Below, in pieces: positions 8,569 through 42,955 of a stretch of DNA of 64,000 bases (position 1 is the stretch's first letter; each line of letters starts with the position of its first letter). The notes under the pieces are model-generated. The model ran no database searches, was not told the origin of the DNA, and saw only the letters and a list, made by a program, of their open reading frames with translations. This DNA comes from Vitreimonas sp. (GTDB lineage: Bacteria > Patescibacteriota > Microgenomatia > UBA1400 > PJMF01), in NCBI GenBank assembly GCA_035627515.1, contig DASPLQ010000012.1:842331-906330 (forward strand). The letters are read 5' to 3'. The translations under genes were made by a program, and so were the position numbers.

Positions 8569-10659
8569 ATGTTGCCTGTGGCCGTGTTTCCTTTGGTATC
8601 TCTAGACTTTTTAATCAGCACCTTCTTATTTGTGGTGGGGTGGGGTAGCTTGGTAGCTTTGAGTTGGTTGTGTCTGCAGTATTTATTTCCTGAGTTATCG
8701 ACAAAAGATACCAGCTATCGGTGGTTAATTACATCCGTGGTCGCTATTGTCGTCTTTACCGGTAGTGCTTATATCATGGGTTACGCTCAACTAAGGTGGT
8801 TACAGCTGTTGTATATTCCGGCAGGATTGAGAGCGGTGTATAAGTGTTTACTGGCTGTTAAGTGGCGTGAGAACTCAAAGTGGTTTGATTTTCAAAAAGG
8901 GGACTGGTGGAGTTGGGGAATTTCTATAGTGGGAATTCTCTGTCAGCTACTTACCATTAGTACCTCAGGCATTTTATCAAATAAAGGCCTGACTTTTTTT
9001 CGCCTCAATGGCTGGGATGGCATGTTGCACTTAAGTTTTGCTGAGTTTATGAAGGTTGAGTTTCCTCCTCAGCAGCCGGGAGCCGTAGGATTAGCTCTGA
9101 CTAATTATCATTACTGGGCAGATTTATTTGTGGCTGAGTTTAGTCGTTTATTTGCGGTACCAGTGATTCACGTTTATTTTCATTTTATACCTTTTGTCGT
9201 AGCAATTCTGATTGCTATAGCTGTATATCAGTTGGCAAAAGTCTGGGGTGGTTCAGTAGTAGTCAGAAGATGGGCACTCTTCTTTTATTTTTTTGCCGGC
9301 AATGCTACCTATCTGTTTATGTGGCTTTTGCACCAAGGATTCGGGTGGAACTCACCAGCCATTGATCACGGTTTACTGTTGTTTTTAAACATGCCGCAAG
9401 CTTTTGCGAGGTTGGGTTTATTGACAGGTCTGATCTTAATTGCAGAATGGTTGCAAACGAAACAACTTAAGTGGCTGGTATTAAGTTGTATTATTTTAGC
9501 GAGTTTGTTTGGGTATAAAATTTACTTTGGTTTATTTGGAGCAATCGGATTAGGAAGTTTACTTGCAGTCAAATTGACATACAGTTTTGTGACAGAACTT
9601 TATCAGCAGCGCAGTTTGAGGGCGTTTAAAACCTTTTTCGCTCATCACTATCCAGTGGTATTGATTGGGGTGCTTTTCGTGGTCATGTCTCTTGCCATCT
9701 TTTTACCACCTAATCGCCAAAGTGGAGGATTATTTTTAGCACCGCTGGTATGGCCCAAAATTTTATTGGGACAAACTAATTTAGATTGGAATGAGTGGTG
9801 GTTACGGCGACAAGTATATGAAGCTTATAGCAACACCCGTAACCTCATAATTATGGATGGCATTGCCATTGCTGTTTTCATGTTATCTATTTATGCCACC
9901 CGCCTGATTGGTATGTTGCCTACGCTCAATTTAATAAAGCGTGATTATGGTGCTTGGTTACTGTTAGTATGGTGGCCGATGTGGCTCTTCACTTTTTTAG
10001 GTATGAATACTTTGCAATCTTCGGGTGGAGCAAATGTTTTTAATTTTTTTATTGTAGCTTTGGTAGTAGGAGGTATTACTACCGCGTTTTGGATAGAAAA
10101 AGTGCTGCGCTGGCCGATGTGGTTGAGCTGGCCGTTACTGATGATAGTTGTGCTTATCTCTTTACCTCGCCCGCTCCAGGATACGTATTTGTTTATAAAA
10201 AGTGCGGCGGTAGGCGAGGAATCCTTAGTGATTTCACCTGATGAGTTAAAAGCCCTGAGTTTTATTAAAACAGCTACTCCCCGCCAGGCTGTTATTCAGA
10301 CGCATCTTAAGAATCATATTGATGCCGAGACGCCATATGGTTCGTACCTTAGTCAGCGTTATTCGTATGTCAGTGGACGGGGTATATTACGTAGTCACAA
10401 CCAACCCGTCACTGAACGCGAGGCTGTGTTATTAGATTTAAGTATGCCTAGTTTGAAGATGAGTTTAGGAGAACGTTTAGTTCATGCCGGCATTGATTAT
10501 TACATAGTCAGAAAAGACAAAAATAATTTCGAACAACTGTGGTTTCCTTGGCAGTATGCTCTACAAGAAGGAGTAGAGGTGGTTTATCAAAATGAGACGG
10601 TGACAGTAGTTAAACCACGGTTACAGGCGGCTGCTACACGTTTTGTGTGTGGCAATTAA
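8569..10659 (+). CDS. Large polytopic membrane protein (696 aa, >12 predicted TM) with a ~200-aa C-terminal soluble domain; possibly a GT-C-like glycosyltransferase or polymerase
   Basis: Hydrophobicity pattern read from the translation; no unambiguous family motif. Confidence 0.45.
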   Translation: MLPVAVFPLVSLDFLISTFLFVVGWGSLVALSWLCLQYLFPELSTKDTSYRWLITSVVAIVVFTGSAYIMGYAQLRWLQLLYIPAGLRAVYKCLLAVKWRENSKWFDFQKGDWWSWGISIVGILCQLLTISTSGILSNKGLTFFRLNGWDGMLHLSFAEFMKVEFPPQQPGAVGLALTNYHYWADLFVAEFSRLFAVPVIHVYFHFIPFVVAILIAIAVYQLAKVWGGSVVVRRWALFFYFFAGNATYLFMWLLHQGFGWNSPAIDHGLLLFLNMPQAFARLGLLTGLILIAEWLQTKQLKWLVLSCIILASLFGYKIYFGLFGAIGLGSLLAVKLTYSFVTELYQQRSLRAFKTFFAHHYPVVLIGVLFVVMSLAIFLPPNRQSGGLFLAPLVWPKILLGQTNLDWNEWWLRRQVYEAYSNTRNLIIMDGIAIAVFMLSIYATRLIGMLPTLNLIKRDYGAWLLLVWWPMWLFTFLGMNTLQSSGGANVFNFFIVALVVGGITTAFWIEKVLRWPMWLSWPLLMIVVLISLPRPLQDTYLFIKSAAVGEESLVISPDELKALSFIKTATPRQAVIQTHLKNHIDAETPYGSYLSQRYSYVSGRGILRSHNQPVTEREAVLLDLSMPSLKMSLGERLVHAGIDYYIVRKDKNNFEQLWFPWQYALQEGVEVVYQNETVTVVKPRLQAAATRFVCGN

Positions 10660-11453
10660 CTACTCGCACTACTGTATCTTTGTAAACCCCAGGCCCAGAT
10701 TTTTAAGGTAATCCAAAAGAACACGACACCAATCCCCAACGTGACAGGAATGCTAAAGCTCAGTGGGCTTCCTAATAGTACTTGGGCTGGGATGGTATAC
10801 ATAAAACCTACTGGCAGAATAAAAAAGAGGGCGGTTCTGAGTGGTTCCACATACATCGTGACCGGAAATTGGCCCAAGCGTGTGATATCACGATAGGTCC
10901 AGATGATGTTGTCTACTTCGGTAGTCACAATTCCCACCACTAATACTAAGATATGCAACCCGGTGGCAATTAACAAGCTATTGATGATGACCACTAGGTA
11001 CAACAGCACCGAACTAACGGTGATGCTGAGTGGTAACTGTGCTATTAACCATATGCTTAGCACTGTAGAAGGGACCAGAAAAAAAACATCGTTAATATCT
11101 GGTTCTCCAGTTAGAGACCTAAAAAGGGCACTTATTGGTCTGGCTAAATAAAAATCAAACTCACCTGATTTGATCAGTCGTCCAAAGTTATAGACACCGC
11201 GATACAAAACTTGAGCTACTATATCAATAAATTGATACGTTAGAAAAAAGACAATCACTTGATCTGTGGTATAACCCGCGATTGTGATGTTTCTTTCTTT
11301 TAATAAATACAAAAACAGCAAGGACATCCCTAACCGCAAGACTTTGCCTAAGATAAATAAGACGTTTGTCCAGCGATTAACAAAGGCACGTTGGAGCGCG
11401 TTGCTGGCAGTGATAAACCATACCTGATAGTAGGTCTGCAAATGTTTTAACAT
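10656..11453 (-). CDS. ABC-2-type transporter permease (pair A, second member)
   Basis: 265 aa, 6 TM-like segments. C-terminal RYSSASS motif shared with 13329..14141. Paralogous to five neighbouring permeases. Confidence 0.6.
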   Translation of the reverse strand: MLKHLQTYYQVWFITASNALQRAFVNRWTNVLFILGKVLRLGMSLLFLYLLKERNITIAGYTTDQVIVFFLTYQFIDIVAQVLYRGVYNFGRLIKSGEFDFYLARPISALFRSLTGEPDINDVFFLVPSTVLSIWLIAQLPLSITVSSVLLYLVVIINSLLIATGLHILVLVVGIVTTEVDNIIWTYRDITRLGQFPVTMYVEPLRTALFFILPVGFMYTIPAQVLLGSPLSFSIPVTLGIGVVFFWITLKIWAWGLQRYSSASS

Positions 11454-11456
11454 CTC

Positions 11457-12257
11457 TTATTGTCCGGTAGCTTCATAACCACTGAGGCCTTTTTTCCAAG
11501 CTCGGTGGGCTAACCACCAGCTTAATACTGTCCAAAAAGCTAATCCAAATGAATAAAGGTAGATTTGACCCAGATCTAAACGTTGTAAAAATAACTGAAT
11601 TTGCACATATGAAAAGTAAGGAAAAGGGGTCAATAAAATGAGTTGCTGGATGGCAGTAGGAAAGATATCCAGAGGATACAGTTTGCCAGCGGTGAAATCA
11701 AGAAACATAAAAAATAAAAATTTTGGCCCCCAGCTATCTGGCGTCCAAAACCCTAAGGTCCCAAATAAGATGGTGATGTAAAAGTGAATTAGAATTCCAG
11801 CTAGAACCCACAGAGAAAATAATAAAATGATACCAAGACTAGGAATGAGTAAGCTGGGTTTAAAAATTAACCATAAAATACCTATTTCGAGGCAGCTAAA
11901 AACCGCATTTTTGAGTTTGTCTGCAGCTTCCACAGCGCCAAAAGATAAAAACAATTTTTCTGGTTTTAAAAAATGGTGGGTAATACCTCCTGAGTAAATT
12001 TCGCCTGCTAAGCCATGTAGGCTACTCGCCAAAATTAGGCTTTGCAGTAGAGAAATCAATAATACATATCCTGCCATTTCTGATTGAGTATAGCCAAAGG
12101 CAGAAGCTTGCGAATTGAAAATCACGTTCCAGACAGTTAGGGCCATGACTGTAGAAAGAAACTGTCGGAAGCGCCAAATAAATAAGCTCGTACGGTAAAC
12201 GAAACTATTTTGCCACGCTAACTTAAAAATGTACCAATACTTAATCATGAGAACCAT
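11457..12257 (-). CDS. ABC-2-type transporter permease (pair A, first member)
   Basis: Multi-TM; C-terminus GYEATGQ resembles the HSYESTGI end of 14122..14904. I take the start at the internal Met (MVLMIKYWYIF), which avoids overlap with the upstream ATPase. Confidence 0.55.
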   Translation of the reverse strand: MVLMIKYWYIFKLAWQNSFVYRTSLFIWRFRQFLSTVMALTVWNVIFNSQASAFGYTQSEMAGYVLLISLLQSLILASSLHGLAGEIYSGGITHHFLKPEKLFLSFGAVEAADKLKNAVFSCLEIGILWLIFKPSLLIPSLGIILLFSLWVLAGILIHFYITILFGTLGFWTPDSWGPKFLFFMFLDFTAGKLYPLDIFPTAIQQLILLTPFPYFSYVQIQLFLQRLDLGQIYLYSFGLAFWTVLSWWLAHRAWKKGLSGYEATGQ

Positions 12258-12270
12258 GTCTATATGCCAG

Positions 12271-13281
12271 TTATTTTTTAGTGGCTTTGACTTTACCAGC
12301 TTGGGTTTGGAAGACTTCACGGATGATGGCTTCAATCGGTGGCTCCTCGATGTTAACATCCTGAACTGGTAAAGTACTTAAAATTTTACCTGCAACTTGA
12401 GCAGCTTTAGTTCGTGGTACTAACAAAGTCACCTTAGGGTGATCAAAGTCTTTCAACTCTCCGTATTTTTTGAGTTCTTTTTCACTAACTTTACCTGAGA
12501 GGACTAATGACAAAATTTTATTACGAGCGTACTTATCAATAATATCTTGCAAAGCACCATCAAAGATTTTGTGACCATGGTCAATAATAATGGCGCGCTC
12601 ACAGAGCTCTTTGACATCTTCCATGTAGTGACTGGTAAGGATAATGGTTGATTTGAACTCTTTATTGTATTCTTTAATGAAGTCACGCAACACTTTTTGC
12701 ATCACCACATCTAAACCAATGGTAGGTTCATCTAAGAACAAGACTTTGGGGTTGTGCAGTAGAGCAGCAATCAGCTCACACTTCATACGTTGACCAAGTG
12801 ACAACTTCCGGACTTGGACTTTCAGAATATCTTGCACTTCTAATAACTCCACAAGTTTATTGAGTGTTTTGTTATATTGGGCATCGGGAATTTCATAGAT
12901 GGCTTTGTTGAGAAGGAATGTTTCCAAGGCCGGCAAGTCCCACCAAAGCTGGTTTTTTTGGCCCATCACTAAGGCGAACTGTTTCTGAAATTCAGGTTTG
13001 CGGTCCCAAGGGTTATAACCCAAGACACTGACCTGCCCATGAGTGGGATATAACAACCCAGACAAGACTTTTAAAGTGGTGGTTTTTCCCGCCCCATTTT
13101 GGCCAATGAAACCCACGATCTCACCTTGTTCAATACTAAATGAAACGTCATCAACAGCTTTGACTTCTTCATACTCTCGGTGCCAAAGTGATTTGATTGA
13201 ACCCCATAAACCTGGTTCTTTTTTATAGACTTTGAAGTATTTACTGAGATTTTGTACTGAGATAACCGGGGCACTGGACAT
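12271..13281 (-). CDS. ABC transporter ATP-binding protein with an extra C-terminal domain
   Basis: Walker A GQNGAGKTTTLKVL, signature LSLGQRMKCELIAAL, Walker B VLFLDEPTIGLD. 336 aa. Confidence 0.9.
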   Translation of the reverse strand: MSSAPVISVQNLSKYFKVYKKEPGLWGSIKSLWHREYEEVKAVDDVSFSIEQGEIVGFIGQNGAGKTTTLKVLSGLLYPTHGQVSVLGYNPWDRKPEFQKQFALVMGQKNQLWWDLPALETFLLNKAIYEIPDAQYNKTLNKLVELLEVQDILKVQVRKLSLGQRMKCELIAALLHNPKVLFLDEPTIGLDVVMQKVLRDFIKEYNKEFKSTIILTSHYMEDVKELCERAIIIDHGHKIFDGALQDIIDKYARNKILSLVLSGKVSEKELKKYGELKDFDHPKVTLLVPRTKAAQVAGKILSTLPVQDVNIEEPPIEAIIREVFQTQAGKVKATKK

Positions 13282-13328
13282 AGAATCCTATTATAACTAA
13301 CTTTACTATCTATAGACACCCAATTTGA

Positions 13329-14141
13329 TCATGAACTAGCGGAAGAGTAAGATCTGAGACCGATTGACCACATGTATTTACAGATCAAGGTTAAGACACA
13401 GGCAAATCCGCCACTGAGCAGAATTAATCCATAGCTAGGAGTATTCAATAATACTTGAACGGGAATAAACACTAAGTAAGCTGCTGGCATGACAGTGTAA
13501 AGAATAGCACGAATGCCCCAAGGATAAATTTTGGGTGGGTAATAACACTGATCGTTAACTGACTGCAAGGTGCGAATGATTTGACTGCCTTTGGTGATAA
13601 AAAAAGCTAACGAAGCATAAATTGCAAATGTCATAAAGAAAATATAAATGCCCACTATATACAACCCGCCATAAATTAAAAGGCCAATCCATGTCCAACT
13701 CTCAGCCAGTAAAAATAATTCATAACCCATAAATAGAACCATAAACACTAAATACAAAAATGATTCTAAGCGTGGATAACTGAAAGCAATCATAAAAAGA
13801 GGATTAAGGGGTTTAGTGAGGACTTTATCAAATTCTCCGGTCGCAATACTTCTGATCATGAAGACTTTAAACCCATCAAAAAAAAGAGCTTCCATTAATG
13901 ACCAGGCACTCATCGAAGTAGCATACATTAAATAAATTTGGTTCTTGGAGTAACCTCCTACAGTTTGAGTTTTGCTGAAAACTGTTTCTAACAGTAAAAA
14001 TACCCCAGCAATGAACACAAAAGCATAGAGAAACCGGATGACCACATCCCATCGGTACTCTAATAACAGCTTCACTGTTAACTGCCATAACTGAAGATAA
14101 ACGCGCCAGTAATAAAGGAGTCTAGATGCCAGTACTTTCAT
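13329..14141 (-). CDS. ABC-2-type transporter permease (pair B, second member)
   Basis: 270 aa multi-TM, ends LRSYSSASS. Confidence 0.55.
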   Translation of the reverse strand: MKVLASRLLYYWRVYLQLWQLTVKLLLEYRWDVVIRFLYAFVFIAGVFLLLETVFSKTQTVGGYSKNQIYLMYATSMSAWSLMEALFFDGFKVFMIRSIATGEFDKVLTKPLNPLFMIAFSYPRLESFLYLVFMVLFMGYELFLLAESWTWIGLLIYGGLYIVGIYIFFMTFAIYASLAFFITKGSQIIRTLQSVNDQCYYPPKIYPWGIRAILYTVMPAAYLVFIPVQVLLNTPSYGLILLSGGFACVLTLICKYMWSIGLRSYSSASS

Positions 14142-14904
14142 ATGAATGGGTTGCTAATCGCCAAATAATTACGCGAAAAATAGTAAAGACAAGCATCCAC
14201 GTTATTAGTATTCCTAATCCCCTCAGACCATCAGGAAATGACAGCTGATTTTTAATAATTTGAATAGGCGTGAATGCATAGTGTGAGAAAGGTAACCACC
14301 ACAGTATTTTTTGAAAAAAATCTGGGAAAAAAAGTGCGGGTATAAAGATACCTGATAAGTATCTGCCGATAAATAAAACACTCATCCGAATTGATTCAAC
14401 TTGGGTGAGCCAAAAGCCTAAAGTACTCAGGCCAAAATAAATTGAAAAGGTGGTGTAAAAAATAAGTGGCAGATAAATAAGGAATAAACTTAGTGAAAGC
14501 CAACTCACTTGAAAAGTGTAGCCCAAAAACCACAGTAGGGGTATCAGAACTAAGGATTTAATTGTGATATCAAAAAGCGCAGTAGCTGCTTCATGAAAAA
14601 AGTAGTACCAGAAAGGTGAGATTGGTTTCAGTAGAAACTTAGAAATGTGTCCTAGCCGAATGTCTTCTTCCACATAATCCAAATGGTAATTTGACAGCCC
14701 ATAGACAATGGCAGAAAATAAATAATAGATTACTAGTTCATTCGCAGTAGTATTTAATTGTGTGGTTTCTTTACTAACTGCTATCCACAACATCATTACA
14801 AAAGTTACCATGATCACGTAACGAAAGAGTCGTAAGATATTGTCCACGCGATATTCAAGAATATCGAGCAATGATAGTCGAAATACTAGCCAATATTTAC
14901 TCAT
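14122..14904 (-). CDS. ABC-2-type transporter permease (pair B, first member)
   Basis: 260 aa multi-TM, ends HSYESTGI. Confidence 0.55.
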   Translation of the reverse strand: MSKYWLVFRLSLLDILEYRVDNILRLFRYVIMVTFVMMLWIAVSKETTQLNTTANELVIYYLFSAIVYGLSNYHLDYVEEDIRLGHISKFLLKPISPFWYYFFHEAATALFDITIKSLVLIPLLWFLGYTFQVSWLSLSLFLIYLPLIFYTTFSIYFGLSTLGFWLTQVESIRMSVLFIGRYLSGIFIPALFFPDFFQKILWWLPFSHYAFTPIQIIKNQLSFPDGLRGLGILITWMLVFTIFRVIIWRLATHSYESTGI

Positions 14905-14923
14905 GTTGTTATTCTAACACTGC

Positions 14924-15769
14924 CTAATTAGCCACACCGCTATATTTGCGGACTGATATGGAAAAAAACCAGCGACTAAACAAGGTGACCCCAATCGTAA
15001 AAATAAATAAGTGTCCTAGCCAAAGTAGGCTGGGTCTACCTAATAGTAACTCAGCGGGCACTGAACTAATCAAACCCAGCGGTAATATCAAGGTTAATAA
15101 CGTGGATGTGGCGCCACTATAAACGCTGCGAGGGAGTTGCCAAAGCCGACGGAAAGCCGGAAAAACTTCATTGATATTATCAAGTTTATCCACCCAAAAA
15201 GCACAAGTACTACAACAAAACCACGAGATATACACTAGATAACCAGCTAAACACAAAGCTATTACAAACCAACCTAAGCTCGCTATGGTGAGGTGGTAAG
15301 GTAATTCTTGGGCACCCCACCCGATAATGAGAAAGCCCAAAATAAAACGAAAGATATTACTATAACTATTATTTTTAATCATCAGCATCACTTGGGTATC
15401 AACGGGTTTAGTCAGCCAAGTATTAAGTGTGCCATCGAAGATCGAGCGTGTGTACTCGGTCATGTTGTGATAGAAAAACGACCATGTAAAGGCATCAATA
15501 ATATTAAATACTCCTAGTAAGACTTTCATTTCACCGCGGCTCCACCCTGCAATGTGGCCCGTAGTTCCCGTCACTAAATCAAAGAAAAAAACATTAAAAA
15601 TAGTCCACATCGCTGAAATACCGCCCCAGAATAAAAAATTGGCTCGGTACTCGAACATGCGCTGTAAATGCATTCGTCTCAGTAACCAAAATAAATGCCA
15701 GTATTTGTAGATCCCATTCATATTTTCTATCCTCCCGATGAGGCGTAATGTCTGACGGCAAATTTCCAA
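14924..15769 (-). CDS. ABC-2-type transporter permease (pair C, second member); the true start may be the internal Met at ~15721
   Basis: Multi-TM, ends VRKYSGVAN. Confidence 0.5.
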   Translation of the reverse strand: MEICRQTLRLIGRIENMNGIYKYWHLFWLLRRMHLQRMFEYRANFLFWGGISAMWTIFNVFFFDLVTGTTGHIAGWSRGEMKVLLGVFNIIDAFTWSFFYHNMTEYTRSIFDGTLNTWLTKPVDTQVMLMIKNNSYSNIFRFILGFLIIGWGAQELPYHLTIASLGWFVIALCLAGYLVYISWFCCSTCAFWVDKLDNINEVFPAFRRLWQLPRSVYSGATSTLLTLILPLGLISSVPAELLLGRPSLLWLGHLFIFTIGVTLFSRWFFSISVRKYSGVAN

Positions 15770-16536
15770 ATGATGGCAATTAATCCCATCAGGCCAAATA
15801 AGAAGCCTGCCATCACTACTAAGTCACCCCACTCTAACACCGCTGAGGATTGCACAATGCTAATTGGGACGGCATACATATACTTGAGTGGCAGTGCCCT
15901 CGTCAGCATCGCTAGCCAGTTGGGCATAAAAGCGATGGGGATCATTGAACCACTAAATAAGGTGATCACAATCCATTTGAAGTGTTCTAAGCCCTCCGCA
16001 CCTTCAAACCAAAAACCCAGTAGCACAATCAAGGTTCCGATCATGAATTCTGTTAAATATGCGTAGAAAAGTAAGCCAATAAATACCAGCGCTTGGTTGA
16101 CACTGAGCGCTGGAATCGAAAACTCAAAAATGGTGGTGATTGCCATCACTAACAGTAGATAAAAGGGCAGCCACATCAGAAAATATAATGATTTACCACC
16201 CACATCGTGCAAAAACATTTCTTTGACAAAGCCGAGTGGTTTGATTAAAAAAAAGTCGATTTTACCTTCACGAATTTGTTGGACGCGCCAACTTTCAAAA
16301 TGGACCCCACATAATGAGTTGATAACTAAACCGATGAAGTAATACTGAAGGACTTGATCTAGAGTTAAACCTTTGACGGTAGTATGTGTGGCATAAATGC
16401 TGCTCCACACCACCATTAAAATGATCACTGGCACTGCATCCAGCACTAGCCACAAACTAATTTCTGACCGATAGGTGAGACTTTTGATAAAAGAACGTTT
16501 GGCAATTTCCCAGTACTTAACCAACATACTGGTCAT
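15727..16536 (-). CDS. ABC-2-type transporter permease (pair C, first member)
   Basis: 269 aa multi-TM, ends VRHYASSGG. Confidence 0.55.
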   Translation of the reverse strand: MTSMLVKYWEIAKRSFIKSLTYRSEISLWLVLDAVPVIILMVVWSSIYATHTTVKGLTLDQVLQYYFIGLVINSLCGVHFESWRVQQIREGKIDFFLIKPLGFVKEMFLHDVGGKSLYFLMWLPFYLLLVMAITTIFEFSIPALSVNQALVFIGLLFYAYLTEFMIGTLIVLLGFWFEGAEGLEHFKWIVITLFSGSMIPIAFMPNWLAMLTRALPLKYMYAVPISIVQSSAVLEWGDLVVMAGFLFGLMGLIAIIWKFAVRHYASSGG

Positions 16537-16572: not shown

Positions 16573-16848
16573 TTACCAGACTGCTTTTTTAAGTGGTTTC
16601 CCCACGCGGAAATTAACTACGCGGTGACCTTTAATCGTTTGACGTTTCTCTTCTTTGCCAAAGGGGACAACTTGTTTGTCTTTCACTTTCCCCAGGTAAA
16701 AAGTGCCGAAACCAGATACCACCACTTTGTCACCTTTTTTTAAGGCACGGATAATTTCTTCAAACATTGACTCCACTGCCTCTTCAGAAGCGCGTTTAGT
16801 CAAATGGGCTTTTTTAGAAACGATTGCGATTAATTGTGATTTTGTCAT
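16573..16848 (-). CDS. hup: DNA-binding protein HU
   Basis: MTKSQLIAIVSKKAHLTKRASEEAVESMFEEI...VSGFGTF...RNFRVGK is the HU/IHF fold signature, including the arm region. Confidence 0.9.
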   Translation of the reverse strand: MTKSQLIAIVSKKAHLTKRASEEAVESMFEEIIRALKKGDKVVVSGFGTFYLGKVKDKQVVPFGKEEKRQTIKGHRVVNFRVGKPLKKAVW

Positions 16849-16917: not shown

Positions 16918-17304
16918 TTAAATAAATTTATAAACGCGGAGCAGTACTATCAAAGCGCCTAATAAGTCGTACCCTATATCTCTAAAAGTAGCGGATCTCC
17001 CGGCTACCCAAGATTGGTGCCACTCATCACTGGCCGCGTAGAGTAACGTCAGCAGCACGGGTAAGCTCCAGTGTAATTTCTCATATTTGGGGCCAGTAGT
17101 CAAGCTAATTCCGCGGTGTAATAAAAAATACAACACACCATACACAAACATATGGGCTACTTTCTTCAAGATGAAGTCAAGTTCAGAGGCTTCCACTGAT
17201 GGCAATGCGTGTTGTGAAGAAAACAAAAAAATCACTCCCGCCCAGAGGAATGGTGGCAAAAAGGCATTAGCCCAGGTGAAAAGTGGGGTGGTTGACCATC
17301 GCAT
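16918..17304 (-). CDS. VanZ-like family membrane protein
   Basis: 4 TM segments and the conserved ASDEWHQ motif. The ORF track extends to 17358; I take the internal Met start. Confidence 0.65.
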   Translation of the reverse strand: MRWSTTPLFTWANAFLPPFLWAGVIFLFSSQHALPSVEASELDFILKKVAHMFVYGVLYFLLHRGISLTTGPKYEKLHWSLPVLLTLLYAASDEWHQSWVAGRSATFRDIGYDLLGALIVLLRVYKFI

Positions 17305-18571
17305 ATAAACACCAGCTACTACCTCCTGACAAAAGTGACCCAGTAAGTATAGCACCAATGGTTAGGAGTTTAGAGGGAGTCTGGCGTTCCAGATTACTGA
17401 CAGGCCCAGCTAGACGAGCAGAACTTGAGGCTAAGAGTGGAGAGGGCAGAAGTTGCAATTGAGCTAGGTCGAGCTGCTGGGATACAAAAGAACTAGAACG
17501 AGGAGATACGTTAGTACTATCTAGACTGGCTGAGCTATTCATGGGTGTATTTAACTCAGCCTCTATCACTTTCTCCACTGCTGAAAAATTACCGTTGGGT
17601 GATGGCGATGGAGTGGGAAAAGGAGAGGGGCTCGAACTGATGTTATCTATGATATTACTGATATTTTTTGTTGGTACCAAGGTTTCTGCCCAACTTCCTT
17701 GATAAAGTACGAAGCTTCGACCACTGTTACAGCTGCCAAACTGTACCGTAAACAATGTATGACCCTCAGGAGTTTCCAAACTGATGCTATCGCCGGAATT
17801 ATTCAACAAACTTCCCGACCAACTCAGTGCTACCCACCCTTGAGCTGGTACCAGGCCGGAGACAAAGCGTGAACTCCCGCTTTGGTCTCTCACGCGCCAA
17901 TTGGTGAGCGTAAAACTGACATTGGCAGAGTTATAAATTTCTAGCCACTCAGTTTCACCTTCACTAGGGCAGGCTACGATCTCAGAAGGCGTGAAGTGCG
18001 TGGGGTAGGAAACAGGAGAAGGAGACGGTGACGGAGTTGGGGTGGCACTCGGCAGGGGAGAAGCAATGGGACTAGAAGAGGGCACAACTGATGGTGACGG
18101 GTTCGGGCTAGGACTTGGCAGTGCTGGATTAGGGTAGCTACGGCTAGGAGCTTGCAATTTAAACTCTGCTACCACTTCGCCATTTGGCGACCGGGCCCAA
18201 CTCATGTCGGTTTGAGTACTGCTATAGCTGACACCATCCATATTTATCAGAGCTGGTGTCTTTAAGCTGATGTTATCACCGCCATTGTTTAGTTTGTTAC
18301 TCACCTCTACCACATGATAACTATGGGGTGCCAAGAGCAAGCCACTTTCTAGAGTATGGATTAAACTCGGGACACTGATCGCATCCCACAGTTGCCAACC
18401 AGATAGGTCAACCGTCTCCGGGCCGGTGTTGTATAACTCAATCCACTCTTCGCCTGTGCTAGGGGCCGGATGCAGTTCATTGATGATCACAGCTGCCTTA
18501 ACACTTCCTGGGGCAGTCATCAGGAAAAAAGAGACGAGGAGTGAAAATAACAAGAATTTAGTCATGAGCAA
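17267..18571 (-). CDS. Secreted/membrane-anchored protein with two lamin-tail (LTD) domains, a Pro/Ser/Thr-rich linker and a C-terminal TM anchor
   Basis: Signal peptide MLMTKFLLFSLLVSFFLMTAPGSVKA. LTD signature 1: VIINELHPAPSTGEEWIELYNTGPETVDLSGWQLWD. LTD signature 2: EGETEWLEIYNSANVSFTLTNWRVRD. Linker PSPSPNPSPSVVPSSSPIASPLPSATPTPSPSPSP. Hydrophobic C-terminus. Confidence 0.7.
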   Translation of the reverse strand: MLMTKFLLFSLLVSFFLMTAPGSVKAAVIINELHPAPSTGEEWIELYNTGPETVDLSGWQLWDAISVPSLIHTLESGLLLAPHSYHVVEVSNKLNNGGDNISLKTPALINMDGVSYSSTQTDMSWARSPNGEVVAEFKLQAPSRSYPNPALPSPSPNPSPSVVPSSSPIASPLPSATPTPSPSPSPVSYPTHFTPSEIVACPSEGETEWLEIYNSANVSFTLTNWRVRDQSGSSRFVSGLVPAQGWVALSWSGSLLNNSGDSISLETPEGHTLFTVQFGSCNSGRSFVLYQGSWAETLVPTKNISNIIDNISSSPSPFPTPSPSPNGNFSAVEKVIEAELNTPMNSSASLDSTNVSPRSSSFVSQQLDLAQLQLLPSPLLASSSARLAGPVSNLERQTPSKLLTIGAILTGSLLSGGSSWCLYAMVNHPTFHLG

Positions 18572-18737: not shown

Positions 18738-21700
18738 ATGTTTTTGGGAAATAAGCTGCTCGCGTGGGTTACAAAAAACTGGGCTTTGGCATTATTAGTC
18801 TGTTTTTTGATGGCAATTTGTGTTGCTAATCTCAAACCTAGTTTTTACTTAATGGGCTGGGATAACTTTAGTGTCTCGCTCGATTTAAGACTCAATCTTC
18901 CTCGCACTTTTTTTGCTACCTGGAGAGAATACAGAGGATTTGGAGTTGCAAGTGATTCGGAAGTTGTAGACGTATTTAGACAGATGATCTTATTAGCTTT
19001 AGATCTACTTTTGCCGATTAATCTTGTGGAACAGATTTACTATTTGATGATGTTTAGTTTGGGGGGGATTGGGGCATTCCTATTAGTAAAACATGTGATT
19101 TCCAGCTCGTATGACACAGGTAGACCTCATATTATCCAAACATCCTCATTAATTGGAGCACTTTTTTATATTTCCAGTGTTAATACCCTCGATGTTTTTT
19201 ACTTACCAATTGTGATGTACATTGTCCGGTTCGCGTTATTTCCCTGGATTGTGTTTGTATTTTTATCTCTTTTATCGTCGCCTAAACTAAATAAAGGTCT
19301 TTTATTATTATTTGCCATTATTACCTTGTTTGGAACCCCAGCCTATCTCACGGCCACAATTTTTATTACGTTAATAATTTTATTAGGAACAACACTCTTT
19401 TCTTGTCCCGAAAAAATTGTGCGTTACTTTTTATTAATCAGTATTTTCTTGTTATTGAATACCTTTTGGTTGTTGCCATTTATCAATTACACAGTTAATA
19501 AATCCGATCGAATCGCACAGTCTGCTACTTTCTCACTTATCAATGAAGGTCTACTGAATCAATTTGCTGAAAGGTTCGCGCCAGGCAGAATTCTAAGTTT
19601 TTCTGCTGAAATATTTGCAGGGATGCCTTTTAGCTTTCTGGACTCTGGGAAGTTTTTTGAAATTCATGATGGGGTGCATTACACACAAATAAATAACCCC
19701 GTTCCTTATTATTTATTTTTGCCCCTGCTATTAGCTTTAGCAGGTTTAACTATATTAATTATTACTAGTGTAGTGAAAAAATCACCCAAGCTAATTTGGG
19801 TTGTACTATTATTTAGTGTCGCAACTTTTTTCCTTTTTAAAGAATACCAATCGTTAGGATTCTTATTTGATTCCTTATCACAGTATGTGCCGGTGGTAAA
19901 AATCATATTCCGTTTCGCCGGCACCAAGTTTTATATCCTCCTCACTATGGCTTTTATGTTATTAATTGCCATTACTGTTTTTTGGCTCCTTAATTTTATT
20001 CATGACTCCACTCCATCTAGTTTTAAAAAAGTATTGCAGTGGCTATTTTCAGCTTGGTTAATTGTAGCCATTTCGTGGTCAACATTTTTTTATCTACAAG
20101 GCAAGCTAACTTTTGATTTATTGTTCGTAGATCTTCCAGCTCCATATCATGAGATTGCCGAGACTATTAATAATGACCCTACTTTTGCTCGAGTTGTTCA
20201 CTTACCCTCTAATCAGCTTAATTATTGGAAAGTGTACGAATGGGGATATTATGGTTCAGCTTTTCTTAACTTCATGCTCGATAAACCATTAATTGATAAA
20301 ACCTTTTCACCCGCCAGTTTAGAAAACGATCAATTTTATTCAGCATTAGAAGACCTTAACAAAAACTTTACCAACTTAACTGCGCAGGATCAAAAAGCAA
20401 GAGCTCAGCAGGTATACAGTTTGTTTCATACTGCAGGGGTAAAGTATGTGATTAATGATGAAACTGTTGATATTAGTAATCTTACGGCCAAAAATATTAA
20501 AACCTGGGACTATTCGCAAACATTCGATATGACGCCATTGGTTATCAAGATGAAGGAAGAGGGTTTGTTGCAAGAAATTATAAAAAGAAATATTAATATT
20601 ACTGAATTTACTCAAAAATACGGGTTAATTCCAGAACAAGTAGGGCAAAATGCTCACCAGGATAGGGCTATTACTCTTTTTGCTCTTTCCAACTTTGAGA
20701 CGTCTTCAGTGAGGTCAGTGCCCAGTGTTACTAATTATGATGCCAACATGGAGAATGCACTGTTATCGTTAGCAACTGATGACGAGCAAACATTTACTCA
20801 AAACGAAAAAGCTGAAGCTGGCTATTTACCATTTTTGACTACACATAAAAACGTTACTAAGCAAAAAGATCACTGGGAATTCGGTAATCCTTCAAATACT
20901 CCACTTGAGTTTGCGTTTAATACAGCCACTGTTTCAGCAAAAAATGTCTCTGAAGCATATGATATTTTTCTGCAAAAAAATGATAAAAATTTAACAATCT
21001 TTGCCCAAAGAACCCAATTACCTTTTGAGAAGAAATTCCGCCCGGAAGCTGCTAAAGAGTTGCTAGTGGTTCCAATGACGCGGTTAAATTGGAAGCAGAT
21101 TCAAAAAGGAGCCTTTACGAATCAGTACGCAAATGATTGGCACATGTTAGGGCTGCGTCCAGTCAGTAATTATCGGTTACAAATTGGTGATTTAGTTTTG
21201 CCCATTCCTATGGACGTTTATGAACAACCCAGTTATTTAAGTACAATTCTTAGTAGCTCGGAAACCAATATTTCCATACTTGAACATGATCAGAAAGATG
21301 AAGCGGCTGCAGCTCTCAAATTAGATACTCTTGGGTTTCTGCCCGAACCTAATTGTTACCCTGATAAAAAATCTAGTTTCGAAACTAGCATTGATGCCAA
21401 TGAAAACAACTTAGTTTGGAAAACGAAAGATGGCACCAGCTGCTTATCACTTCCGCTGGGTTTTGAAGTCAACCAAGCTGATGCAGAAGGCTTCCAAAGC
21501 TATCTGGAGTTAACATTAACTACTACTCATCAAACTACTGAGAGTGAGATTGAAAACCAACAATTCTCACCTTTAAAAATTCAGCGAGCTATTCGCGGTG
21601 AAGTAGCGGATCTCCCCAACTATACAAGTCTGGAATATTGTTTTGCAGATAGTGATGACCAGCGCTGTCTTAATTATCGGCAAGCACTGAGAACTTTATC

Positions 21701-22922
21701 AAAAGAAAGTACGGTGACTATTACTAGTCAACGCACACTTAATCAACCTAATGGCTATGTCACGTTAATTTTGCCGCGTATAAACGAAGAAGAACATACT
21801 GTGAATATCTCTCAATTAGCGCTCAATACTTTTTCACCTTTAGTGACTACAAATGTGACCTTGCCCAGCGCTATTAATACTGGCACTAGACCAAAGATAA
21901 CTTCAGCATTGTCCTTGCCCTATGTGCTCTCCACCAGTTCTTATTTTTTCAATCCTCAAGTGGAGGCATTGCAGTTGCGGTTTAGAAGTAGCTGTGAACA
22001 TGGATCAGGTGACCATCGCTTACAAAGAGTGAGAATGGCCAAAGAGGGGACAAATAATTCTGTATTGAGTTATGTTGACGATTGTTATCAAAGCATTTTT
22101 ACGGTGATTCCTTTTAATCCTCATAATCTCTATTTCTTAGGTACACAGTATCATGTTTACACTGGCAATCAACCACAATGGATAGCTAGCCAGGATTATG
22201 CACTCAAACATGAATTATTGTCACGTTATGACTATTACCCAAATATGCCTAACTTCAAAACCCTGCAGCACGCAGATCGGTTTTTGAGCACGGTATCTTC
22301 GGCACGGGAAGAAGTTAAAAAAGAGCTTAATAAATATGCTTCTCTAGCCGCTTATACTACCGTCCAGCCGGTAGGAAACACCTTAACCAAAGATCAGTTC
22401 ATTGAAATTCATCACCCAGTTGGGAATCAAGGCTTGATGCAGTTGTGGGATTTGACCATTATGGCATTACCTGCAAGCTGGGGTTCAGTTAAGCTAACGC
22501 CACCTAATCCCGAACAACGCTTTGATGAAGTGCAAGTAAAAACGATTACTCGAGTTTTGCCTTCGCTGTGGAAAGCTGAGATAGAATTGCCTCGCGAATG
22601 GAAATATGGCCGAGCTTTTCTAGAATTTGGCCAGGCATATGATCAGCAATGGCAGTTTTTTGTAGCTCGTTCACCATGGCAAGTCTTTTTTAATAAAGGC
22701 CATTTGCCGGTTGAGCCTGTGAAAGTTAATGGTTGGGCTAATGGTTTTATAATTGCCAAAGAGCAGTTGCCAACCACAAATTCGTCTTTAACCGTTTACT
22801 TCTTTTATATCCCAGAAAGATTAGCAATTGTGGGCTGGATGATCACCATTACTACTGTGATGGCAGTAATTCTTTACTGTGAATGGGCAAAGCTAAAAGC
22901 TTTGTTCAGATTTAAGCGGTAG
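18738..22922 (+). CDS. Giant (1394 aa) membrane protein: N-terminal ~450-aa multi-TM GT-C-like domain, ~900-aa extracytoplasmic domain, C-terminal TM helix (AftD/DUF3367-like architecture?)
   Basis: Translation shows ~12 TM segments at the N-terminus, a long hydrophilic Asn/Thr-rich region, and a terminal TM (LAIVGWMITITTVMAVILY). Family assignment is by architecture only. Confidence 0.5.
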   Translation: MFLGNKLLAWVTKNWALALLVCFLMAICVANLKPSFYLMGWDNFSVSLDLRLNLPRTFFATWREYRGFGVASDSEVVDVFRQMILLALDLLLPINLVEQIYYLMMFSLGGIGAFLLVKHVISSSYDTGRPHIIQTSSLIGALFYISSVNTLDVFYLPIVMYIVRFALFPWIVFVFLSLLSSPKLNKGLLLLFAIITLFGTPAYLTATIFITLIILLGTTLFSCPEKIVRYFLLISIFLLLNTFWLLPFINYTVNKSDRIAQSATFSLINEGLLNQFAERFAPGRILSFSAEIFAGMPFSFLDSGKFFEIHDGVHYTQINNPVPYYLFLPLLLALAGLTILIITSVVKKSPKLIWVVLLFSVATFFLFKEYQSLGFLFDSLSQYVPVVKIIFRFAGTKFYILLTMAFMLLIAITVFWLLNFIHDSTPSSFKKVLQWLFSAWLIVAISWSTFFYLQGKLTFDLLFVDLPAPYHEIAETINNDPTFARVVHLPSNQLNYWKVYEWGYYGSAFLNFMLDKPLIDKTFSPASLENDQFYSALEDLNKNFTNLTAQDQKARAQQVYSLFHTAGVKYVINDETVDISNLTAKNIKTWDYSQTFDMTPLVIKMKEEGLLQEIIKRNINITEFTQKYGLIPEQVGQNAHQDRAITLFALSNFETSSVRSVPSVTNYDANMENALLSLATDDEQTFTQNEKAEAGYLPFLTTHKNVTKQKDHWEFGNPSNTPLEFAFNTATVSAKNVSEAYDIFLQKNDKNLTIFAQRTQLPFEKKFRPEAAKELLVVPMTRLNWKQIQKGAFTNQYANDWHMLGLRPVSNYRLQIGDLVLPIPMDVYEQPSYLSTILSSSETNISILEHDQKDEAAAALKLDTLGFLPEPNCYPDKKSSFETSIDANENNLVWKTKDGTSCLSLPLGFEVNQADAEGFQSYLELTLTTTHQTTESEIENQQFSPLKIQRAIRGEVADLPNYTSLEYCFADSDDQRCLNYRQALRTLSKESTVTITSQRTLNQPNGYVTLILPRINEEEHTVNISQLALNTFSPLVTTNVTLPSAINTGTRPKITSALSLPYVLSTSSYFFNPQVEALQLRFRSSCEHGSGDHRLQRVRMAKEGTNNSVLSYVDDCYQSIFTVIPFNPHNLYFLGTQYHVYTGNQPQWIASQDYALKHELLSRYDYYPNMPNFKTLQHADRFLSTVSSAREEVKKELNKYASLAAYTTVQPVGNTLTKDQFIEIHHPVGNQGLMQLWDLTIMALPASWGSVKLTPPNPEQRFDEVQVKTITRVLPSLWKAEIELPREWKYGRAFLEFGQAYDQQWQFFVARSPWQVFFNKGHLPVEPVKVNGWANGFIIAKEQLPTTNSSLTVYFFYIPERLAIVGWMITITTVMAVILYCEWAKLKALFRFKR

Positions 22923-41638: not shown

Positions 41639-41808
41639 TTATTTTTGAGTTGTGGCTGTTGCTGAGCACCTTTTAATTTATAAAAATTATTACGCCATGA
41701 TTGAGCGGCACTGTGATAATAGCCGGCTGCTAAAGCCAGGACAACAATGATAATGACGAGTAAGCGCGTCACATTTTGGGCAGAGAGTGGTGGTTTAATT
41801 GTGGACAT
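41635..41808 (-). CDS. Possible small single-TM protein (57 aa), below the ORF-track size cutoff
   Basis: Hand translation: MSTIKPPLSAQNVTRLLVIIIVVLALAAGYYHSAAQSWRNNFYKLKGAQQQPQLKNN*. Overlaps the LCP stop and the octamer repeat. Speculative. Confidence 0.25.
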   Translation of the reverse strand: MSTIKPPLSAQNVTRLLVIIIVVLALAAGYYHSAAQSWRNNFYKLKGAQQQPQLKNN

Positions 41809-42955
41809 TAAGGCCTAATTTTTGAGCAACTTCTAACTTAAATTGTTCGCTGTCCCGAACCTGATATATCCATTGGTTTTGATACCGAGCGGTGAGTGGG
41901 GGATTGATTAGCACTCCCTGTGGGTCATCGGGATAAACACTCAAGCTATTGCCAGTATACGTGATCGCATCCTTGTGTGGCCATAAGCTTTTAGCGGTCG
42001 CTAGGCCTTCCTCAATACTGACAGCTCGACCAAATTGAGTCTGATAAAACTGATACAGCTGGCCTAGTTTTTTGGGTTGTTTAATCAAATTAGGATCGGT
42101 AGCCTTAGCCAAGATGGCTTTGATGACTTGCTGCTGGCGCCGGGCACGAGCATTATCGTCACCTTCATCACCCATACTATGGCGGCTGCGGATATATTTG
42201 AGAGCTGTTGCACCATTCATCGTTTGAGGCCCAGCTTTAAACTCCACAGTTTCATACAGCTTAGCAGGGTCACGCTCGGTAGTTACATCCACGTCACTGC
42301 GCGGGAAGAGTGGATCTATAAAAGCGGTTTCGACACTCACCTCGATTCCTCCCAACATATCAATAACTTGTGCCACTTGGTCCATAGATATCAAGACTGT
42401 GTGATGAATAGGTACTCCAGTTAATTGTTCAATAACTTCCTTTGAAAAGCGTTCCGGTTCAGTGGGATAACGGTCACGGCCATACGCATACAAAGCATTA
42501 ATTTTAGTTTGAAAATCTTCACTATAGATATCACGAGGCAAAGGTAAACTGCGGATCTGGCCGGTCTCTAAATTAACAGAGACCAGCATCATTGTGTCAG
42601 TTAGGGGTGGGACATCTCCCCGGGTTTGGAGGGTATCCACTCCCAGCAGTAAAACATTTTTATGATGGTTGGTGTGGATGGGAGTTTGATTCCAGCCTGT
42701 CGTCAGTGTTTGATAAAGTTGACGAGGAGTAGTGCCAGCAGCCGTGGTAAAAGTCGTCAAGCGATGGTAGGCAAAAAGAGCCACCGCCAGGAAAGTGATC
42801 GCCAGGAAAATCACTACAAATAGTAATGTCAAAAGCTGAGCGGCAATAAAAGGGTGGCGATTGATAAATCCAAGCCGTGGCTCCATATGAAGTGAGGGGG
42901 TCATACTCATCGAAGAAGTTTCGGCTGGAATCGGCGTTAGTTTTGCTTTGGCCAC
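41795..42955 (-). CDS. LytR-CpsA-Psr (LCP) family cell-wall glycopolymer ligase
   Basis: N-terminal TM anchor, then LLLGVDTLQTRGDVPPLTDTMMLVSVN and an RSRH motif, characteristic of the LCP domain. Confidence 0.85.
   Translation of the reverse strand: MAKAKLTPIPAETSSMSMTPSLHMEPRLGFINRHPFIAAQLLTLLFVVIFLAITFLAVALFAYHRLTTFTTAAGTTPRQLYQTLTTGWNQTPIHTNHHKNVLLLGVDTLQTRGDVPPLTDTMMLVSVNLETGQIRSLPLPRDIYSEDFQTKINALYAYGRDRYPTEPERFSKEVIEQLTGVPIHHTVLISMDQVAQVIDMLGGIEVSVETAFIDPLFPRSDVDVTTERDPAKLYETVEFKAGPQTMNGATALKYIRSRHSMGDEGDDNARARRQQQVIKAILAKATDPNLIKQPKKLGQLYQFYQTQFGRAVSIEEGLATAKSLWPHKDAITYTGNSLSVYPDDPQGVLINPPLTARYQNQWIYQVRDSEQFKLEVAQKLGLNVHN

Follow-up and report, generated by a model that had tools for sequence, protein, structure and literature searches.

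The locus lies within a window of 64 kb, i.e., the whole stretch of DNA that was analysed, and comprises seven minus-strand genes directly downstream of hup (16573..16848, minus strand; PF00216, 73 bits), which encodes an HU DNA-binding protein. In transcription order, they encode permease C1 (15727..16536, 269 aa), permease C2 (14924..15721, 265 aa), permease B1 (14122..14904, 260 aa), permease B2 (13329..14141, 270 aa), an ABC ATPase (NBD; 12271..13281, 336 aa), permease A1 (11457..12257, 266 aa), and permease A2 (10656..11453, 265 aa), and all open reading frames of the C1-C2-B1-B2-ATPase-A1-A2 array described in the initial annotation were present. The mechanical ORF of A1 reaches 12359 and would overlap the ATPase gene; the start is most likely the ATG at 12257 instead, because a database protein (P0241) of the same length (266 aa) matched it with 100% identity and coverage. 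Similarly, for C2 the ATG at 15721 (265 aa) is the most likely start instead of the TTG at 15769, to which its mechanical ORF extends. The successive gaps from hup to A2 are 36, 5, 19, -20, 47, 13, and 3 nt: the 36 nt between hup and C1 contain no terminator-like site, C2 begins 5 nt past the C1 stop, and the first 20 nt of B2 are also the last 20 nt of B1. No intergenic terminators were found in the scan, compatible with one operon, and the promoter scan returned fewer promoter-like sites than shuffled sequence (10 vs 18.8). The seven genes appear to form one operon that is expressed jointly, and hup is probably co-transcribed with them.

All six permeases (6/6) matched PF06182 (ABC2_membrane_6), a family of the ABC-2 clan, over essentially the whole profile, with scores for C1, C2, B1, B2, A1, and A2 of 60, 141, 57, 115, 70, and 129 bits, respectively (E 4e-15 to 8e-41; gathering cut-off, 22 bits), confirming their assignment to an ABC-type transmembrane family. 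PF01061 (ABC2_membrane) was found only in B1, and weakly (19.4 bits vs the 26.9-bit cut-off), so that no permease reaches its threshold, and none of the six had an NCBIfam match. Phmmer comparisons inside the window resolved two subfamilies, T1 (C1, B1, and A1) and T2 (C2, B2, and A2), whose members found only each other (E 1e-8 to 1e-16), and the same split was recovered in a neighbour-joining tree, the six paralogues sharing 20–26% pairwise identity. The C-terminal endings that had been noted for the two kinds of permease are real (Y-x-[AS]-x-G-x in T1 and Y-[ST]-[SG]-[AV]-[SG]-[SNG] in T2, with a Tyr at -6 from the C-terminus in 209/225 T1 and T2 sequences), but they are family-wide signatures, also carried by Deinococcus and Prochlorococcus homologues, rather than specific to this locus. 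In addition, a putative coupling helix with the motif G-x5-L-x-[KR]-P between TM2 and TM3 is common to all six permeases, and conservation over the 225 sequences (mean top-residue frequency) peaked at this helix (0.56) and the C-terminal tail (0.52) compared with ~0.28 elsewhere.

AlphaFold models were obtained for one member of each subfamily, A1 for T1 (pLDDT 93.3, pTM 0.90) and A2 for T2 (pLDDT 95.1, pTM 0.91). In Foldseek searches, the best PDB matches of the A1 model were Wzm structures (TM 0.64–0.72), those of the A2 model were Wzm, KpsM, TarG, and ABCG25 (TM 0.53–0.63), and all significant PDB matches of both models were type V transporters (TM 0.53–0.72). Both subfamilies are thus confidently modelled with the type V ABC-exporter transmembrane fold; the models have an N-terminal interface helix and six transmembrane helices, TM2 being followed by a short coupling helix and TM6 preceded by re-entrant helices. 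A PDB sequence search with B2 returned no match, and no solved structure was found within PF06182.

The ATPase (PF00005, 98 bits) has intact motifs, including Walker A (GQNGAGKT), the signature (LSLGQ), Walker B (VLFLDEP), and the H-loop, and consists of a DrrA/ABCA-like core (~residues 35–250) and a C-terminal domain of ~85 aa. Its best NCBIfam match, TIGR01188 drrA (207 bits), falls under the 312-bit subfamily cut-off, and the protein is therefore DrrA-like but not a DrrA equivalog. The closest solved NBDs by sequence are those of ABCA3/7/4/1 (E 1.6e-46 to 4e-37), and the C-terminal domain can be aligned to its counterpart in PmtA (residues 37–312 of the query matched). Among the protein clusters listed, the best 119 others are 76–87% identical to this ATPase, and those with a named source were from Patescibacteria. 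Moreover, its conservation exceeded that of RpoA, S4, L17, L13, and S9 in 98–100% of 91 genome pairs (median identity 75% vs 53–66%), and a segment including the Q-loop (residues 101–120) was as conserved (0.92) as Walker A and Walker B. No second ABC ATPase was detected at E ≤ 0.01 within the 64-kb window (genome size, 1.41 Mb).

A survey of 72 related genome loci (12 of them non-CPR) placed this arrangement in context. All 12 non-CPR loci (12/12) had the layout ATPase-T1-T2, a single-pair operon seen in Deinococcus, Paenibacillus, Tumebacillus, and Prochlorococcus, and this canonical 2:1 permease:ATPase ratio was also found in some CPR loci. In CPR relatives, a single ATPase was accompanied by one to four pairs, pair numbers above one were seen only in CPR lineages, and no second ATPase of the same type (>200 bits) was present within ±10 kb at any surveyed locus. 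The untruncated loci included 13 C-ATP-A, 4 B-ATP-A, 8 C-B-ATP-A (taking in variants and leaving out the window itself), and one four-pair arrangement; the C-B-ATPase-A order of the window, and with it the 6:1 permease:ATPase layout, is common to at least eight other species. The view in the initial annotation that one ATPase for three permease pairs is unusual therefore holds against the 12 non-CPR loci but not within Patescibacteria, where multi-pair layouts are common. No description of the multi-pair arrangement was found in the literature on PF06182/DUF990, their COGs, and CPR.

The initial annotation had also raised a large hetero-oligomeric complex, in which the six permeases and several ATPase dimers would act as a single machine. 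The co-directional, tightly packed genes of one operon and their order, kept in the other species, would fit such an assembly, but relatives possess one, two, three, or four pairs, with B or C missing, so that no pair is obligatory to a fixed assembly; the solved type V ABC structures matched above also comprise, as far as is known, two transmembrane domains and two NBDs, and the single machine is highly improbable. T1 and T2 occurred together, with T1 first, at all surveyed loci, including the non-CPR single-pair ones, except at contig ends, in frameshift-split ORFs, and where genes were displaced by insertions; this co-occurrence and order would be expected if the heterodimers are obligate.

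The pairs A, B, and C represent separate orthogroups, each forming a pure clade in the neighbour-joining tree, and the distances between them are as large as those to non-CPR homologues. Because the orthogroups are separate and deeply diverged, the triplication is, on sequence comparison, ancient. A recent tandem triplication was ruled out, as the paralogues are only 20–26% identical and each has its own orthologues. The triplicated permease module of the initial annotation thus stands as three T1/T2 pairs around one ATPase gene, but it is not peculiar to this genome, with the A, B, and C orthogroups present in relatives. Orthologues of C1 (38–46% identical) lie upstream of the ATPase gene in relatives, those of C2 are 39–50% identical, those of B1 (34–55%) are restricted to some relatives, where they invariably adjoin the ATPase gene, and those of A2 (35–60%) lie downstream of it in nearly all CPR relatives keeping the downstream pair. 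All three orthogroups were kept across genomes whose ribosomal proteins are just 50–70% identical, indicating that all three pairs are under purifying selection.

This retention bears on the suggestion that only the universal A pair works, the upstream pairs, especially B, being redundant, decaying, or regulators that compete for the ATPase. The A pair, downstream of the ATPase gene in most CPR relatives, is indeed the most conserved (~50% identity), and B2 is the fastest-evolving member, with orthologues just 22–47% identical. However, B2 retains the residues invariant across the six window paralogues, as do all B and C genes, which are intact and have full-length Pfam matches; B and C persist as orthogroups over deep divergence, and three loci (L007, L044, and L048) retain upstream pairs without a downstream pair, making redundancy or decay of the upstream pairs quite unlikely. 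One of these loci, L007, has C and B pairs and no A pair within 10 kb, and another locus, L009, has ~7 kb of unrelated genes between C1 and C2; the arrangement is therefore not rigid. In 44 related loci, the gene immediately upstream of the ABC cluster, and on its strand, encodes HU, and the neighbourhood conserved in relatives consists of hup, VanZ, an LTD surface protein, and the ribosomal-protein cluster (rpsI-rplM).

On top of the gene content, subfamily structure, orthology, predicted fold, and conservation pattern demonstrated above, we consider it fairly likely that the products of the locus form an ABC-2 exporter system with the type V fold, in which A1A2, B1B2, and C1C2 heterodimers share one ATPase dimer. 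The highly conserved single ATPase probably powers several exporters, a sharing deduced from the presence of one ATPase gene per cluster. The usual unit of one ATPase and one presumed T1/T2 heterodimer would have been expanded to three paralogous heterodimers, and the ATPase homodimer would probably dock alternately on each pair, through elements common to the six permeases, namely the coupling-helix motif and the C-terminal Tyr tail. The result would be three transporters with one motor and different membrane cavities, and thus probably different substrates. The coupling-helix motif and the Tyr tail are present in single-pair lineages too; together with the high ATPase conservation, they are compatible with ATPase sharing but non-specific to it. 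Considering the type V fold, the ABCA/DrrA-like NBD, and the absence of a binding-protein gene from the cluster, amphipathic or hydrophobic molecules would most likely be exported or flipped outwards.

The single ATPase, together with the putative ATPase-contact motifs and the fold common to all T1 and T2 permeases, would also accommodate a combinatorial transporter set, in which any T1 pairs with any T2, so that as many as nine heterodimers could use the one ATPase dimer. Such free pairing is unlikely, however: B1 was found only alongside B2 and C1 only alongside C2, gains and losses over 60 loci always involved whole pairs, and the identities of B1 and B2 to the window copies co-varied across loci, suggesting cognate partners.

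Among known systems, the six permeases belong to the same permease family (PF06182/DUF990) as EvrABC of Synechocystis PCC 6803, i.e., the Ethyl Viologen Exporter (DUF990) family, TCDB 3.A.1.141. To our knowledge, EvrABC is the only characterised member of this family, which uses a COG4586 ATPase with COG4587 and COG3694 permeases. As in EvrABC, two different permease subunits are combined with one DrrA/NatA-like ATPase, a likeness at the level of the family: T1 and T2 are two distinct subunits encoded together, like an EvrB/EvrC-type pair, and a DrrA/NatA-like ABC-2 ATPase gene is adjacent. In contrast to the canonical ratio of one ATPase gene to two permease genes, the ratio in the window is 1:6, which makes the locus a variant of the PF06182/DUF990 family and does not exclude it from that family. 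The window further differs from EvrABC in having three pairs around one ATPase gene (one to four in relatives), in its gene order, with pairs upstream of the ATPase gene, in its linkage to hup and the ribosomal-protein cluster, and in the unusual conservation of the ATPase. The TCDB 3.A.1.141 entry for EvrABC is cited in PMC5417439. Some Firmicutes operons of the DUF990 family sit behind ppGpp riboswitches (PMC6003355); no Rfam families, and hence no ppGpp riboswitch, were detected in the window.

It is established that type I importers can share an NBD (a 'multitask' NBD), as with MsmX (PMC7658222), and MsmX, MsiK, FhuC, and the group II ECF energising module each provide one ATPase that drives several membrane modules (PMC7658222, PMC10147376). 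By analogy, the single ATPase of the window would work like that of the MsmX/MsiK systems for several modules, without being a member of them: those are importers with binding proteins or S-components, whereas the window system is of the ABC-2 exporter type, and its cluster lacks a binding-protein gene. In multitask and ECF systems, the gene for the shared ATPase is usually unlinked from the permease operons, whereas the single ATPase gene of the window lies mid-operon among all its presumed partners. Genes for ABC exporters normally couple an ATPase to a fixed set of membrane domains, and the present cluster represents a lineage-wide operon case of a single ATPase gene among one to four different membrane modules, presumed to be heterodimeric. 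If the sharing is real, it would provide a natural system to study how one motor recognises several membrane partners, and the multitask ATPase concept would then cover type V exporters in addition to type I importers.

Wzm-Wzt, TarGH, KpsMT, and ABCG2/ABCG25 have the transmembrane fold predicted for the window permeases (TM 0.53–0.72), but their sequence identity to them is just 8–20% and they belong to a different Pfam family. In addition, the solved bacterial type V exporters, as far as is known, use transmembrane homodimers, whereas the window permeases are expected to form heterodimers. The nearest solved folds being Wzm, TarG, and KpsM (TM up to 0.72), and the window harbouring many glycosyltransferases, sugar-nucleotide enzymes, and an LCP ligase, with a glycan locus that starts ~6 kb from the transporter cluster, the system might be a lipid-linked glycopolymer exporter of the Wzm-Wzt/TarGH/KpsMT kind that serves the neighbouring envelope-glycan genes. 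The initial annotation had likewise proposed glycolipids or lipid-linked sugars as substrates on account of the flanking glycosylation genes. This proposal was not borne out and the glycan-exporter reading was downgraded to improbable, because the glycan locus has its own Wzx-type flippase (46934-48433) and the linkage to glycosylation or glycopolymer synthesis genes is not conserved in relatives, whose conserved neighbours are of other kinds. Further evidence against it is that the permeases fall under the PF01061 threshold, that the ATPase carries a C-terminal domain aligning with that of PmtA and no carbohydrate-binding domain detectable by profile search, and that single-pair family members also occur in unrelated bacteria (Deinococcus and Prochlorococcus).

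The cluster ranks with the most conserved loci in the sample, and its position next to hup and the ribosomal-protein operon is fixed. It is a priority target in Patescibacteria, since the ATPase is conserved above RpoA and four ribosomal proteins at a fixed location, in organisms with unexplained membrane and envelope supply lines. A more specific and rather doubtful proposal is that the multi-pair cluster might be a core, near-essential membrane system with which Patescibacteria acquire, flip, or sort lipids or lysolipids of host origin, with one lipid class per T1/T2 pair and the ABCA-like ATPase driving all. ABCA1/3/4/7 lipid transporters, to which the closest solved NBDs belong, are of the same type V fold class, but they are eukaryotic full transporters that consist of a single chain and have large extracellular domains, and the resemblance was compared for the NBD alone. 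Patescibacteria cannot synthesise lipids and no mechanism of lipid uptake has been identified in them (PMC11665869), a stated gap in lipid supply that the lipid proposal, if true, would fill. The type V fold, the ABCA-like NBD, the conservation of the ATPase above ribosomal proteins, and the CPR-only expansion of pairs are compatible with a role in lipid handling.

Seven ORFs occupy positions 10656-16536 of the window, all on the minus strand and transcribed in the order C1-C2-B1-B2-ATPase-A1-A2, in which six permeases form three pairs around one ABC ATPase (12271-13281). The first members of the pairs, C1 (15727-16536), B1 (14122-14904), and A1 (11457-12257), are referred to as T1, and the second members, C2 (14924-15721), B2 (13329-14141), and A2 (10656-11453), as T2. 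The most likely starts of A1 (ATG at 12257) and C2 (ATG at 15721) differ from the mechanical ORF list, the former because it gives 266 aa, the length of a 100% identical database protein (P0241). The hup gene, encoding HU (16573-16848, minus strand, PF00216), lies upstream of C1, and the successive gaps from hup to A2 are 36, 5, 19, -20, 47, 13, and 3 nt, with no terminator-like site detected by the site scan in any intergenic gap. The seven transporter genes look like one operon, of which hup may be part.

All six permeases matched the whole Pfam profile PF06182 (ABC2_membrane_6, formerly DUF990) with 57-141 bits (cut-off, 22 bits), and the remaining gene encodes an ABC ATPase (PF00005) with intact Walker A, signature, Walker B, and H-loop motifs, whose top NCBIfam match was a DrrA subfamily model, scoring below that model's cut-off. 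A phmmer search with the ATPase against every ORF in the 64 kb window recovered only the query, so that no second ABC ATPase was detected there, and the same search with each permease recovered only its own class, {C1, B1, A1} or {C2, B2, A2}; BLASTP identities among the six were 20-26%. By every sequence feature tested, the locus belongs to the PF06182/EVE (Ethyl Viologen Exporter) family, but it departs from that family in stoichiometry and gene order. To our knowledge, EvrABC is the sole characterised member. EvrABC is a viologen exporter (TCDB 3.A.1.141; cited in PMC5417439).

AlphaFold2 models of A1 (pLDDT 93.3, pTM 0.90) and A2 (pLDDT 95.1, pTM 0.91) shared one architecture, with an interface helix at the N-terminus, six TM helices, a short helix following TM2, and re-entrant helices ahead of TM6. 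The meaningful Foldseek matches in the PDB were all type V ABC transporters (Wzm, KpsM, TarG, ABCG25/ABCG2, NosY, and PmtCD), with TM-scores of 0.53-0.63 for A2 and up to 0.72 for A1; a PDB sequence search with B2 found no solved PF06182 structure. The closest solved nucleotide-binding domains (NBDs) to the ATPase by sequence were those of ABCA3, ABCA7, ABCA4, and ABCA1. Across 225 T1 and T2 sequences, the most conserved permease segments were G97-x5-L-x-K-P106 (A2 numbering, 0.56) and the C-terminal tail (0.52), against an average of about 0.28 elsewhere. As the former corresponds to the short helix after TM2 in the models, it is placed at a putative coupling-helix position. Residues invariant across the six window paralogues fell in these two elements and in the regions of the N-terminal interface helix and the re-entrant helices.

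The distinct C-terminal endings of the two permease classes, described in the initial annotation as features of this module, are real but represent family signatures rather than window-specific ones. In 209 of the 225 T1 and T2 homologues, a Tyr occupies position -6 relative to the free C-terminus (window example, 10656-10676), with Gly at position -2 in T1 and typically SASS in T2, and the pattern recurs in Deinococcus and Prochlorococcus. The fixed distance of this Tyr from the chain end suggests a structural role for the terminal carboxylate region, possibly at the ATPase or a partner subunit.

Among the other protein clusters listed, the best 119 shared 76-87% identity with the ATPase; few of them carried a source name, and those were Patescibacteria (CPR). 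A scan of species-representative genomes with ATPase peptides yielded 72 loci, whose six-frame ORFs were searched with T1 and T2 profiles derived from the window sequences; each permease was assigned to A, B, or C by best BLAST hit with a margin of at least 40 bits over the second-best. Among untruncated loci, the layout ATPase-T1-T2 was found in all 12 non-CPR loci (Deinococcus, Tumebacillus, Paenibacillus, Prochlorococcus, Clostridia, and Elusimicrobia). The CPR relatives carried ATPase-A (5 loci), C-ATPase-A (13), B-ATPase-A (4), two pairs upstream and none downstream (3), or both pairs downstream of the ATPase (L065, Gottesmanbacteria), while the window-like C-B-ATPase-A was present in eight other species when layouts in which a member is frameshifted or weakly assigned are counted. 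Moreover, an Amesbacteria locus (L033, 5121-12278) held four T1/T2 pairs around one ATPase, and one of the three loci without a downstream pair (L007) had C-B-ATPase with no A pair within 10 kb downstream. Gain and loss across loci proceeded by whole pair; alongside this variation, a single supercomplex of all six permeases appears highly improbable.

In a neighbour-joining tree of the 225 sequences, A1, B1, C1, A2, and C2 formed pure clades and the B2 clade additionally took in two unassigned T2 sequences, with between-group distances (2.3-2.7) as large as those to non-CPR homologues. Together with the whole-pair gain and loss, these sequence relationships indicate that the three pairs are ancient paralogues, differentially retained. 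A recent triplication is ruled out by the ortholog clades and the distances. In one relative (L009, 1966-9150), about 7 kb of unrelated genes (cupin, M19 dipeptidase, APH-family kinase, and others) separate C1 from C2, showing that a cognate pair can be split without losing either gene.

What the analysis establishes is the gene content, the two subfamilies, the orthology, the fold, and the conservation of the putative ATPase-contact elements. The most economical reading of the locus is that the three T1/T2 pairs would form alternative heterodimeric exporters of type V sharing one ATPase homodimer. Heterodimers are suggested by the strict co-occurrence of T1 and T2 and by analogy to EvrB/EvrC; the same co-occurrence leaves a mix-and-match arrangement, in which any T1 pairs with any T2, rather unlikely. 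Sharing of the ATPase is likewise suggested by the single ATPase gene per cluster, and export is the probable direction, since the fold is type V, the NBD is DrrA/ABCA-like, and the cluster lacks a binding-protein gene. One NBD serving several membrane modules is known in type I importers, e.g., MsmX and FhuC (PMC7658222, PMC10147376), and no description of several pairs around one ATPase was found in literature on the PF06182 family or Patescibacteria.

Across 14 genomes carrying all markers (91 pairs), median pairwise identities were 75% for both the ATPase and HU, 66% for S4, 62% for RpoA, 59% for L13, 57% for S9, and 53% for L17, and the ATPase was more conserved than each of the five information-processing proteins in 98-100% of pairs. 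The loci were picked through ATPase peptides, which biases the sample, but the consistent gap of 9-22 percentage points is larger than this bias could account for. Across CPR, the NBD core was 81% identical and the C-terminal domain 49%; residues 101-120, including the Q-loop, reached a conservation of 0.92, equal to that of Walker A and B. The putative ATPase-contact motifs of the permeases and the high conservation of the ATPase are found in lineages with a single pair as well, and so fit ATPase sharing without being a specific sign of it. Permease identity was far lower than that of the ATPase (A, ~50%; C, ~42%; B1, ~40%; B2, ~28%), and the alternative that the upstream pairs are redundant or decaying is considered improbable.

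Regarding the substrate, a large envelope-glycan locus extends from ~22.8 to 63 kb (22874-63748), with about seven GT2 genes, one GT1, two PMT_2 (GT-C) proteins, one GT2-GtrA fusion, three GDP-mannose-dehydratase-like enzymes, one UDP-glucose dehydrogenase, RmlD, an LCP ligase (41795-42955), and several 400-690-aa ORFs without a Pfam match. The glycolipid-type substrate initially proposed from these flanking genes is unsupported, because the glycan locus has its own Wzx-type flippase (46934-48433) and glycosylation genes are not conserved neighbours in relatives; glycopolymer export is accordingly improbable. A multi-specificity system for lipid acquisition or flipping is similarly a long shot; if true, it would bear on a published gap, namely that no route of lipid uptake is known for Patescibacteria (PMC11665869). 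Operons of unassigned function that combine a natA-like ATPase gene with COG3694 and COG4587 permease genes are found behind ppGpp riboswitches in some Firmicutes (PMC6003355); no Rfam family was detected in the window.

The neighbourhood is also conserved, the order in relatives being large membrane protein, LTD surface protein, VanZ, HU, permease pairs, ATPase, and A pair, followed by the convergent rpsI-rplM-rplQ-rpoA cluster. In 44 related loci HU directly precedes the ABC cluster, and it may be co-transcribed with the transporter operon across the lineage. VanZ (16918-17358) and the LTD protein (17267-18571), whose linkers are rich in Pro and Ser, keep their synteny with the cluster in 27-28 loci, and a 1394-aa ORF without a Pfam match (18738-22922) has only weak homologues in 13 loci, most of which it is inverted against. 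Furthermore, rpsI and A2 are separated in the window by an inserted plus-strand 696-aa multi-TM ORF (8569-10659) that matched no Pfam family and lacked homologues throughout the 72 loci; relatives carry either nothing or a small GIY-YIG gene at this place. The ORF and A2 are convergent and overlap by 4 nt at their 3' ends. Many records with such a typical Patescibacteria cluster (L005, L007-L019, L037, and the window source) bear the titles 'uncultured Pseudomonadales', 'Gammaproteobacteria', 'Vitreimonas sp.', or 'Bathyarchaeia archaeon', which very probably reflect metagenome bins given the wrong taxonomy.
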